Source: a virus
Lineage: Duplodnaviria > Heunggongvirae > Uroviricota > Caudoviricetes
DNA: 42,138 nucleotides
Direction: 5' to 3' (one strand)
IMG/VR virus record: IMGVR_UViG_2526164691_000033
Coordinates: 1-42,138 of that record
A model generated the notes under the pieces. It was not told the origin of the DNA, ran no database searches, and saw only the letters and a list, made by a program, of their open reading frames with translations. A program made the position numbers and the translations under genes. Of the stretch, positions 7,835 through 9,965 are shown piece by piece (within the stretch, counting starts at the first letter, position 1; each line of letters begins with the position of its first letter).

Positions 7835-7900
7835 CGGGCGGCGGCACAGGGATGTGCCTTTAAAATAATCATTGGCGATGTGATGTAGATTCGCGTAATA

Positions 7901-7915
7901 TTACCTTAAAGGTAA
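7901..7915. promoter_or_regulatory. operator motif TTACCTTAAAGGTAA
   Basis: Perfect TTACC-N5-GGTAA; possible TTGGCG -35 and TAATAT -10 directly upstream; 43 nt upstream of the 7958 ORF. Confidence 0.5.
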
Positions 7916-7957
7916 ACCTGTTTTTATTTTATACCTGTAACTTACCGGAGATTAAAG

Positions 7958-8284
7958 ATGACAAAACTTGGATTCGTGATGAGAGGTCCGGTAAGAAGCG
8001 GAACTCATGCAAAGCGTAGCAAGAGTCGTATTTTTACTGGTAAGGTTGTAGCACGTAAATCAGCTATTGGCTCGTTCAATAGTGAAAATGCGGCATTGCG
8101 CCATATTTTTATCAGCACAAAGCCAAGAGCATCCGCTGATGTGCATACAATGTCTATTCCTATCACAAAGAATATAAAGCGGATAAAAAAGCTCTCATCT
8201 GCAGAATCAAAAGAGATATCTTTCCGCCAGCTTAACTCATTAGAAACGCATATGAAGGAAGAGGAATTCGATGTTTTTGAGTGA
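7958..8284 (+). CDS. hypothetical very basic protein (cargo island)
   Basis: GGAG 12 nt upstream; 108 aa, K/R-rich; AT-rich by eye; no recognisable domain. Confidence 0.4.
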   Translation: MTKLGFVMRGPVRSGTHAKRSKSRIFTGKVVARKSAIGSFNSENAALRHIFISTKPRASADVHTMSIPITKNIKRIKKLSSAESKEISFRQLNSLETHMKEEEFDVFE

Positions 8285-8783
8285 GTATAGCGGGAAGGTT
8301 ATACCTACTGGTGAGTTTAAAACTGATGACTTTCTGATTTCGCTAAAAGATGCTTTTAAACAACACTGGCGTCATGGTCATCATCCTGATCTGGGAAAAG
8401 ATACTCTTTTTGAAAGACCAGACGAAGTATTAGGCTTCCATCTCAGAAAGGTTCATGTCAATATTGGTGAATATGCATCATATTCATACTCATGTACTGA
8501 ACAGTGTTGGGATGAGTGGTCATATGGATTGATTGATGAACAAGGAAATTACAGGCCAAAACCAACCAGTAACGCATATCTCATATATGCAGTCAATGAA
8601 ATAAGAGATGCAGCCTTACTAGCTTATTGGGACCCGCCCGCACACACCAAAGCTAACGCAAAAGTTTGGATGGATTCCGTATTGAATTTCACAAAATTAT
8701 TTCATGAACGAACGAATACAGCCCCACTTAGTAGAAATGTTTATCCGTGGGATTATTCGTACAAATCCAAAAAGCCTGCATAG
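8271..8783 (+). CDS. hypothetical protein, 170 aa, His/aromatic-rich (cargo island)
   Basis: GGAAGAGGA before ATG; overlaps upstream ORF by 14 nt (translational coupling); no recognisable domain. Confidence 0.5.
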   Translation: MFLSEYSGKVIPTGEFKTDDFLISLKDAFKQHWRHGHHPDLGKDTLFERPDEVLGFHLRKVHVNIGEYASYSYSCTEQCWDEWSYGLIDEQGNYRPKPTSNAYLIYAVNEIRDAALLAYWDPPAHTKANAKVWMDSVLNFTKLFHERTNTAPLSRNVYPWDYSYKSKKPA

Positions 8784-8864
8784 TAGTTTTTTATGGACGA
8801 AACAAAAGTCAGTGCTACACTCATTGACGCCACATTGAGGTGGCTTATAGATGGAAATGTCACA

Positions 8865-9026
8865 ATGAAAAAAGCATTTGCTGCACTGTTCGTTTTGTTG
8901 TCTCTGGTAGCTTCAACTCAGGCCTTTGCCGGTCGTTGTCAGCACGACAGCGATACTGCCGCTGACGGCTCCCGCTGCGGTGGGCGTTCTGCGGATTCCC
9001 GCCCGGGCGGCGGTGGCATTCGTTAA
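8865..9026 (+). CDS. small secreted peptide (about 31-aa mature, two Cys), hypothetical
   Basis: MKKAFAALFVLLSLVASTQAFA then GRCQHDSDTAADGSRCGG...; start chosen so the signal peptide is N-terminal; the GC-rich 3' part could instead be RNA structure. Confidence 0.35.
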   Translation: MKKAFAALFVLLSLVASTQAFAGRCQHDSDTAADGSRCGGRSADSRPGGGGIR

Positions 9027-9031
9027 AAACA

Positions 9032-9049
9032 AGGCCGCGAAAGCGGCCT
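9032..9049. terminator. GC hairpin AGGCCGC-GAAA-GCGGCCT between convergent genes
   Basis: 7-bp GC-rich stem with GAAA tetraloop; A-run upstream. Confidence 0.45.
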
Positions 9050-9062
9050 GTGACATGTCACG

Positions 9063-9512
9063 CTACTTGCGAAATCTTTCTTTACCCTTCCAGCCAGTAG
9101 ATGTTAGTTCAGGATGAATGGTTCCCAATATAAAGCCAACCATAGCGGAGCGAGGATCTTCTATTTTATCCGTTAATTCTTCGGCATAACTCACAGGCAA
9201 CCAAGCAACAAGATCACCAATCCTCAGCTTTGGTCCTTTGCTGTAAGATGAATCGGCAATAACAAAAAATCCACCATCAGCTGAGCACACCTTCAGCATT
9301 GCCCTTTGTCTTCCAGAATCTAGCAAAACTGGCTGTTCCCCACTTGGACCAGGTATGATGATGGCTGGCATTGGTTTATTGGCTGAAAGGCTTGTGTCAA
9401 GATACTTACACGCATACTCAAAAGCTGAAAAGTTATCCTTAAAGATAAGAGGTTGAATTTTATTGCTAACCTCCTTACCACCGATTAATCTGTTGATCAT
9501 CTTCTTGAACAT
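9063..9512 (-). CDS. hypothetical cytoplasmic protein (cargo island)
   Basis: 149 aa from ATG with AGGTGA 6 nt upstream; no recognisable domain. Confidence 0.45.
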   Translation of the reverse strand: MFKKMINRLIGGKEVSNKIQPLIFKDNFSAFEYACKYLDTSLSANKPMPAIIIPGPSGEQPVLLDSGRQRAMLKVCSADGGFFVIADSSYSKGPKLRIGDLVAWLPVSYAEELTDKIEDPRSAMVGFILGTIHPELTSTGWKGKERFRK

Positions 9513-9524
9513 AAAGGTCACCTA

Positions 9525-9965
9525 ATGATTAAGCCGATGCACGCTATTACAGCTACCGTTTTGTTTATCCTACCAATTTTTTCGTTTGCAAACGACATAT
9601 GTTTTAAGAATTTAATAAATGAGGATATGTGTGCACATGCAAACAAAATTGCATCAGAAGCAGGAAAGTCACTTCCCATAAAATTGAATGATAATATGTC
9701 TATTGTTTCAATAAATGCAATACTAAACAAACTTTTAGTTGTAGCGCATCTTAATTACAACAACAGCTATTTATCAAAAGTTTATAATGGTGATGTAACC
9801 TTAGAAAATAAATTAAAGAGTGTAATGCGAAATTATTCAAAATCGAGCATTTGCTCCAACAGGCAAATGAAAGCATTTATTCACCTTGGCGGAGAGATTG
9901 AGTATAGGTATGTATTTAGTGATGGCAATATATTTGATACATACGCCATCACTAATTGTGAATAG
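9525..9965 (+). CDS. hypothetical secreted protein, AT-rich gene (cargo island)
   Basis: 146-codon ORF in markedly AT-rich DNA; N-terminal signal peptide (ITATVLFILPIFSFA); several Cys; stop codon abuts that of the convergent 1129-aa gene. Confidence 0.45.
   Translation: MIKPMHAITATVLFILPIFSFANDICFKNLINEDMCAHANKIASEAGKSLPIKLNDNMSIVSINAILNKLLVVAHLNYNNSYLSKVYNGDVTLENKLKSVMRNYSKSSICSNRQMKAFIHLGGEIEYRYVFSDGNIFDTYAITNCE

Follow-up and report, generated by a model that had tools for sequence, protein, structure and literature searches.

A two-slot cargo island with a probable YafO-type toxin-antitoxin pair behind an operator-like palindrome in an epsilon15/phiV10-like prophage of Escherichia coli

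We analyzed a cargo island in the IMG/VR virus record IMGVR_UViG_2526164691_000033, a caudoviricete DNA of 42,138 nucleotides (nt) that was examined over its full length and is called the window below. Judged by its sequence, the window is an E. coli prophage with an epsilon15/phiV10-like (Uetakevirus-type) backbone, and the island separates the antirepressor (immI-type) region from the leftward operon of virion-protein genes. On the left it is bordered by a Bro-N antirepressor gene, ant (7109-7834; Pfam E 1e-19), and on the right by a minus-strand gene for a protein of 1129 amino acids (aa), which RefSeq assigns to DUF919 and the PHROGs to an internal virion protein with an endolysin domain. 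The list of open reading frames (ORFs) placed five genes within positions 7958-9965, all of them exactly where an earlier note on this DNA, made from the letters alone, had located them. On the plus strand, the gene for a 108-aa protein with an isoelectric point (pI) of 10.6 (7958-8284), the candidate antitoxin, overlaps by 14 nt the gene for a 170-aa protein (8271-8783), a long-form YafO-family toxin with a RelE/HigB-type fold. These are followed on the same strand by a gene for a secreted peptide with two cysteines, of 77 or 53 aa depending on whether it starts at 8793 or at 8865 (end at 9026). Beyond this peptide gene lie a minus-strand gene for a cytoplasmic 149-aa protein with a predicted OB-fold and an N-terminal helix, from an uncharacterised family (9063-9512), and a plus-strand gene for a secreted 146-aa protein with four cysteines, from a rare family (9525-9965).

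The guanine-plus-cytosine (GC) content of the island is 0.401, compared with 0.484 for the window, which places it among the lowest 0.3% of stretches of the same size; it lies in the window's lowest-GC stretch. The drop in composition for which the region had been called an AT-rich island is therefore real, but it is not uniform, as the 108/170-aa pair has a GC content of 0.40 and the 146-aa gene one of 0.317, whereas the 53-aa gene and the hairpin behind it reach 0.58. Rfam found no RNA gene inside the island. The whole region is 100% identical in three complete E. coli genomes, and the exact sequence of each of the five proteins is found in at least 1000 public contigs.

The central gene of the island is that of the 170-aa protein. 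RefSeq already names this protein as a YafO-type toxin, so the earlier statement that none of the five proteins has a recognisable domain fails in its case. An exhaustive profile search of 1.84 billion representatives returned only 58 related clusters (at 50% identity). The Pfam family YafO_toxin was matched by 35 of 50 aligned relatives, with a best E of 6.8e-23, and alignment of the 50-sequence family with K-12 YafO by hhalign gave a probability of 96% and an E of 3.8e-9 over 110 columns, which covered YafO residues 11-128 of 132. Residues F29, G42, H62 and H125 are invariant in the family and G36, D44, P50, W80, S100 and Y106 nearly so; the conserved candidate catalytic residues are K43, D44, R59, H62, S100, Y106 and H125. 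The motifs F...G..P..G[KR]D, H.H, [ST][SN][DN]..L.Y and [AP]H are common to the 170-aa protein and K-12 YafO. However, the protein is longer than K-12 YafO (170 versus 132 aa), and it differs from it by an insertion of about 25 residues (the W80/W83 helix) and a C-terminal extension. The predicted structure shows a RelE-like alpha/beta fold, although sequence identity with HigB2, HigB1, RelE, YafQ and YoeB is just 6-18%, with no sequence-level match to their solved structures; indeed, no member of the YafO family matched any solved structure by sequence. We conclude that the 170-aa protein is a long-form YafO-family toxin with a RelE/HigB-type fold. YafO has been placed in the RelE/ParE superfamily, with an antitoxin-toxin gene order and with mRNA degradation as its activity (PMC11980606). 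According to one report, YafO binds the 50S subunit and its cleavage sites in mRNA lie 11-13 nt past the start codon (PMC7781912); its dependence on the ribosome has been called into question by transcriptome-wide data (PMC8546651). From its sequence, the 170-aa protein is predicted to be an mRNA endoribonuclease that arrests growth through mRNA cleavage.

The gene upstream of the toxin gene is a constant companion. Three orthologous toxins from Serratia, Salmonella and related contigs were located in nine places, and in all nine a gene for 104-110 aa precedes the toxin gene with the same 14-nt overlap; more distant toxins have overlapping upstream genes for 63, 84, 88 and 152 aa. Both genes are present, at 99% identity or more, in every one of the 69 E. 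coli genomes with the module, and a good ribosome-binding site for the toxin, AGAGGA, lies inside the end of the upstream gene. The layout is that of a type II module, namely a small, co-directional and conserved pair in which the antitoxin gene stands upstream and is translationally coupled to the toxin gene. The partners diverge faster than the toxins (33-51% versus 66-82% identity), with a kept N-terminus, MTKLGFV (MRTLGFV in the 63-aa relative), a variable and basic middle, and a kept acidic stretch of about 30 C-terminal residues, …S.RML..LEDRMKEE.FDVFE. These conserved ends are suggestive of toxin binding. The 108-aa protein matches PHROG 5933, a family of unknown function, and had no match in Pfam, NCBIfam, PADLOC or PDB sequence searches. 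No antitoxin of the YafN (Phd/YefM) type was found in the module. On the basis of its sequence and position, the 108-aa protein is likely to be the antitoxin, and it belongs to an unannotated family unrelated to YafN. The earlier note had offered, as speculation, a toxin-antitoxin pair made up of the first two genes; homology, fold and the conserved order of the genes bear this out. The K-12 yafN-yafO module belongs to the same toxin family by profile and has the same order of overlapping antitoxin and toxin genes; in contrast to the K-12 module, which sits in the SOS-controlled dinB operon (PMC7781912), the one described here lies in a prophage, behind what is probably a phage operator.

Comparison with related prophages showed that the island is a two-slot accessory-gene (moron) hotspot. 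The position and flanks are conserved, the content is unrelated among relatives and the composition deviates. In complete E. coli genomes and metagenomic relatives alike, the 53-aa peptide gene and a terminator behind it are kept while the DNA on either side changes. Slot A (7835-8790) carries the 108/170-aa pair in the window, and slot B (9063-9965) the 149/146-aa pair. Elsewhere, slot A holds a DUF4760 protein (Pfam E 8e-31), an overlapping 72+125-aa pair, or a 59+181-aa pair in which the 181-aa toxin scores above the Pfam YafO cut-off, and in phiV10 it is empty; slot B holds a 283-aa protein, Rap1a-family genes, a lipoprotein, or Ant plus an Arc-like repressor. A count over 5426 complete E. 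coli genomes gave 69 with the 108/170-aa pair, 14 with the 149/146-aa pair and only 4 with all five genes together, and all of these copies are at least 99% identical. The position between ant and the virion genes had been expected to carry variable cargo, with conservation across related prophages proposed as a check; the content does differ among relatives, and in both slots.

The frame between the slots also bears on how the genes are to be grouped. The terminator is an intrinsic hairpin, AGGCCGC-TTTC-GCGGCCT followed by TGTTTTT (9032-9049), and it belongs to the minus strand and the leftward late operon. A terminator scan placed its T-run on the minus strand, the homologous element of phiV10 carries the annotation of a terminator, and many related phages conserve the hairpin; it does not close a plus-strand unit of three genes, as had been proposed. 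Nor do those three genes form one evolutionary unit, since the peptide gene and the terminator stay in place when the 108/170-aa pair is swapped. The RefSeq start of the peptide gene, at 8865, gives a protein of 53 aa that opens directly with a signal peptide; this is predicted to end in AFA and to leave a mature part of 31 aa with two cysteines. The peptide matches PHROG 14503, 'membrane associated protein', and is called 'transmembrane anchored protein' elsewhere, labels that come without evidence. As it is kept beside different slot-A cargoes, its gene is a GC-rich anchor of the conserved frame between the slots and not a part of the pair.

What the pair does can be considered in the light of this exchange of cargo. 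Type II modules on mobile elements have a classical role in retention, as in phd-doc of P1, and the pair could be an addiction module of this kind: upon prophage loss the labile antitoxin would disappear and the toxin would arrest the cell, with no role in phage resistance. This would agree with the usual role of such modules, with the absence of a defence signature in PADLOC, and with the fact that the module is always chromosomal, within prophages, and at least 99% identical in all 69 carriers, which suggests recent horizontal spread with the phage. However, the same slot in close relatives holds other toxin-antitoxin types, DUF4760 membrane proteins or, in phiV10, nothing, and such variety fits diversifying conflict genes better than a universal need for maintenance. 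We therefore regard a pure retention module as possible but rather unlikely. Retention and defence are not mutually exclusive, and between them we consider growth arrest that protects the lysogen during infection to be more likely than simple prophage retention.

Several further observations concern the two slots. Some E. coli prophages and phage EC.W1-9 have an additional YafO-family toxin across the ant region (contigs L019, 1-555, and L045, 1-499), which has an upstream partner of 139-147 aa; a third cargo position may thus exist, and one genome may hold two YafO-type pairs. In contig L014, a related YafO-like pair shares its cargo area with a gene (4085-4681) that has an OspG-type kinase domain (PF22303), OspG being a kinase among the type III effectors. 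Slot A of the viral contig L032 (3479-5093) contains three tandem paralogues of 165-182 aa, each with an N-terminal hydrophobic segment that is probably membrane-spanning, and they resemble DUF4760 proteins by eye only.

In addition, slot A contains a perfect palindrome of 15 bp, TTACCTTAAAGGTAA (7901-7915; it has no strand), upstream of the pair. It is one copy of the motif TTACC-N5-GGTAA, for which the window has 14 sites (9 of them exact) against 0.70 expected; none of 100 shuffles reached 14. The consensus of the motif is ATTACCTnnnnGGTAAT, and in six loci its arms were invariant and its centre variable. The copies (at 3191, 6460, 6840, 7901, 25403, 28545, 28563, 33505, 33567, 35530, 35867, 35915, 36628 and 36689) mostly precede transcription units. 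Two lie between a Cro-like gene and a 194-aa repressor-like gene, which has motif copies on both of its flanks, and further copies stand upstream of gtrA, a 91-aa gene, the C4/ant region, the terminase region and other early genes. In epsilon15-like prophages a copy precedes slot A whatever its cargo (four antitoxin types, DUF4760), and in non-epsilon15 contexts of related toxins the motif is absent upstream. Because of this number of copies, their occurrence before unrelated cargoes and antitoxin types, and their absence from the non-epsilon15 contexts, the palindrome is most likely the binding site of a phage regulator, which is probably the repressor. The operator that had been noticed in front of the pair is hence a real palindrome, but it is a backbone motif with 14 copies and not specific to the pair. 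An autoregulatory operator of the antitoxin (ATTACC-N5-GGTAA) was considered and rejected, given the 14 copies throughout the prophage, also before unrelated cargoes; no antitoxin-bound autoregulatory operator was identified for the module. In the simplest reading, slot A is a transcription unit of the backbone that takes different cargoes.

The 194-aa protein (35985-36569), which has one helix-turn-helix (HTH) domain of the YdaS-like type at residues 21-61 and another of the Cro/C1 type at 106-147, is likely, from this domain content, to be the prophage repressor, and the Cro-like gene (35600-35830; 76 aa) is divergent from it. The set of motifs probably represents the operators of this repressor, in a layout reminiscent of P1. 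P1 and P7 have dispersed C1 operators and an immI locus with a C4 antisense RNA and ant. The likeness lies in the C4 antisense RNA and its targets upstream of ant and in the single palindrome scattered over many transcription units; the putative repressor, in contrast to that of P1, is a double-HTH protein of 194 aa, and to our knowledge neither it nor the operator sequence is related to P1 C1. A similar hyphenated repeat was reportedly proposed as a repressor site in the epsilon15 genome paper.

This wiring raises the question of whether the toxin serves the lytic programme of the phage, with host mRNA shut-off or timing as its task and the 108-aa protein as a timing inhibitor, and is switched on together with the antirepressor region once the repressor is inactivated. 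The pair stands directly behind a motif that also precedes the repressor gene, the Cro-like gene, the C4/ant region and the terminase region, and it could be repressed in the lysogen and derepressed upon induction. However, phiV10 and other relatives lack any gene in slot A, so that the pair is not part of an essential programme, and the conserved translational coupling to an inhibitor is a signature of toxin-antitoxin modules. A copy of the motif also lies just upstream of gtrA (3191); the gtrA family is known for lysogenic serotype conversion, and thus a gene behind the motif does not have to be silent in the lysogen. We consider a lytic role quite improbable.

We propose instead that slot A carries a type II toxin-antitoxin module, in which the 170-aa toxin would stop growth by cutting mRNA and the upstream, translationally coupled 108-aa protein would act as the antitoxin. 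The antitoxin would hold the toxin through its conserved N-terminal strand and its acidic C-terminal helix, and it would have no DNA-binding domain of its own. Transcription of the slot would start behind a copy of the dispersed operator TTACC-N5-GGTAA, and because slot A would be transcribed behind this prophage operator, the module would be wired into the phage repressor circuit and not classically autoregulated. The 53-aa peptide gene and the late-operon terminator would part slot A from slot B, in which an OB-fold protein of the cytoplasm and a disulfide-bonded protein of the periplasm would be inherited together. This proposal builds on direct observations of gene structure, homology, fold, conserved gene order, motif distribution and the exchange of cargo between prophages. 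We put the probability of the reading as a whole, that is, a two-slot hotspot with a YafO-type toxin-antitoxin pair in slot A behind a phage operator and a pair without an assigned function in slot B, at roughly 0.78.

Some results weigh against this reading. The pair is known here from sequence alone, and from this we infer its toxicity, its neutralisation, the protein that binds the operator and its biological role. Taken singly, the 170-aa protein scored 19.7 bits (E 9.5e-4) with Pfam YafO_toxin (PF13957), below the cut-off of 25 bits, although the match spans positions 7-100 of the 101-position model, and its pairwise BLAST comparison with K-12 YafO was not significant; its family membership is nevertheless clear at the profile level, because of the 35 matching relatives and the hhalign E of 3.8e-9. 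The charges are inverted with respect to typical RelE-type pairs (toxin pI 6.4, antitoxin pI 10.6), and BLASTP gave no alignment of the 108-aa protein to YafN. A toxin-binding tail like that of YafN (…MKEEEFDVFE compared with …MTDDDFNDFKE) was also considered and abandoned, as a hidden Markov model of the C-terminal part missed YafN and 10-25% of shuffles equalled the score. A consensus scan found no plus-strand sigma-70 promoter upstream of the pair, or for either of the plus-strand units. PADLOC recognised no defence system in the island. Finally, if repression at the operator is tight in the lysogen, the pair would be silent there, which argues against defence of the lysogen.

No family of PADLOC-DB 2.0 matched any of the five island proteins at E values up to 1, and PADLOC gave no credible match for nine alternative cargo proteins. 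A role in defence or exclusion, which the earlier note had thought probable for this position, is therefore not supported by the catalogue. We found no paper describing this cargo position in epsilon15/phiV10-like phages, and searches of the literature on the RefSeq accessions, DUF4760 and YafO-based prophage defence returned nothing specific. It could be imagined that both slots form an uncatalogued hotspot of anti-phage or anti-competitor genes, in which the YafO-type pair acts by abortive infection under the control of the repressor operator, the antitoxin is a 'wrap-around' protein free of DNA binding, and the 149/146-aa genes are a new exclusion or immunity pair; we hold this extended version to be improbable. 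Unrelated, AT-rich and exchangeable genes at a fixed site are also found in the sieA-mnt-arc-ant region of P22 and at two variable positions in P2-like phages (PMC3573123), but here the backbone is epsilon15/phiV10-like, and no cargo matches a catalogued defence system.

Part of this picture is already known, since the gene at its centre has been annotated before, is recognisable as one of an established toxin family, and occupies a site where prophages typically carry cargo. The new elements are modest. They comprise a family of antitoxins not described so far, a long-form branch of YafO for which the model is confident, the layout in two slots, and the wiring of a slot to a phage-wide operator. 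If the pair were confirmed, the small YafO family would gain a distinct branch of long-form members (only 58 clusters), and there would be a new antitoxin family for a toxin that is often listed without a partner in surveys of prophages and tailocins (PMC10449497, PMC4684702). A confidently modelled relative could also help to settle the disputed dependence of YafO on the ribosome (PMC8546651). Moreover, unrelated cargoes behind one phage operator would offer a simple picture of how accessory genes are controlled in this group of phages. The second slot adds two small families that have no assigned function. For a temperate phage, nothing in the picture as a whole is surprising.

We also analyzed the two genes in slot B. 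The family of the 149-aa protein comprises at least 71 unannotated proteins and reaches beyond the enterobacteria; its distant members are solitary chromosomal genes, and it also occurs without the secreted partner. The predicted structure of the 149-aa protein contains a five-stranded closed beta-barrel (OB-fold), preceded by an additional conserved N-terminal helix motif, FKDNxSAFEYACKY. It differs from the nucleic-acid-binding OB-fold domains (RsgA N-domain, IF1/eIF1A, S1, SSB) in having no sequence relation to them. The protein has no Pfam family, the viral structure library gave no significant match, and the PDB sequence search gave matches at chance level only. The 146-aa protein has a signal peptide and four invariant cysteines (C26, C36, C110 and C145). 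Searches of Pfam, NCBIfam, PDB sequences, the phage collection and 100,044 genomes gave nothing useful for it; beyond the slot-B loci, its relatives are a hypothetical protein of a Pseudomonas megaplasmid and one locus among the 100,044 species genomes, and the neighbours of the single distant homologue were uninformative. Within the 146-aa gene, the minus strand (9748-9928) has the promoter-like pairs TTGCCA-16-TATACT and TTGATA-18-TAAGAT and a weak terminator-like hairpin (9848-9869). These signals could possibly serve the 149-aa gene, but shuffled versions of the region contain more matches of this kind than the region itself, and the signals may be due to chance.

The 149- and 146-aa genes are co-inherited. 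They stand head-to-head in the window and in a relative with only 32-40% identity, and they occur together in each of the 14 E. coli genomes in which they were found; another relative retains 85% identity in the cytoplasmic protein but 31% in the secreted partner, which has diverged far more. These features, together with the periplasmic immunity genes of the Rap1a type that Serratia and Salmonella relatives carry in this slot, are the points in favour of a new two-compartment exclusion or immunity system, made up of a nucleic-acid-binding OB-fold protein in the cytoplasm and a protein in the periplasm. Set against this are the solitary members of the 149-aa family, and we consider such a system improbable as well; a role of the 146-aa protein in exclusion or immunity at the envelope, prompted by analogy with the Rap1a genes, would be a guess. 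The Rap1a-family genes themselves (PF18602) lie in the slot beside the virion genes of these relatives (contigs L004, 5554-5943; L005, 5554-5808; L010, 5557-5940). Rap1a is an immunity protein of type VI secretion, and given this role, prophages may hand out orphan immunity genes.

The closest phages to the window are phiV10 (genus Uetakevirus), TL-2011b, EC.W1-9 and their relatives, and the backbone is thus epsilon15/phiV10-like and not P22-like, the type with which the position had been compared earlier. The order of gtrA, tailspike, ant region, island and virion proteins nevertheless mirrors the P22 map, and the comparison of the island's position with that of sieA in P22 is reasonable. In phiV10, very little lies between ant and the virion genes, namely an ORF of 29 aa, a gene for a membrane protein of 46 aa and a terminator annotated on the same strand as the virion genes. 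Directly 3' of ant in the window, a plus-strand hairpin, GGCACA-GGGA-TGTGCC (7843-7858), can be read in the sequence. It is possibly a weak ant terminator: at the matching site of the Salmonella relative L009 the sequence is GGCGC...GCGCC, with A-T changed to G-C on both arms, but the window's hairpin has a poor T-run and was not called by the terminator scan.

Upstream of ant, Rfam identified isrK (6891-6967; 67 bits), the C4 antisense RNA (6992-7075; 66 bits) and C4 target sites (6878-6930), which points to control of ant by a P1/P7-type immI system in this epsilon15-like phage. A second low-GC stretch, at 3100-4100 (GC 0.37-0.40), contains a GtrA-family gene (3202-3597; Pfam E 2e-13) and the distal part of the tailspike gene, and this content points to serotype-conversion and receptor-binding cargo. 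In addition, the 91-aa ORF at 6533-6808 is similar to the C-terminal portion of the window's own antirepressor, whose gene follows 300 bp downstream, and matches positions 176-225 of an anti-repressor PHROG, so that it may be a stand-alone Ant C-domain.

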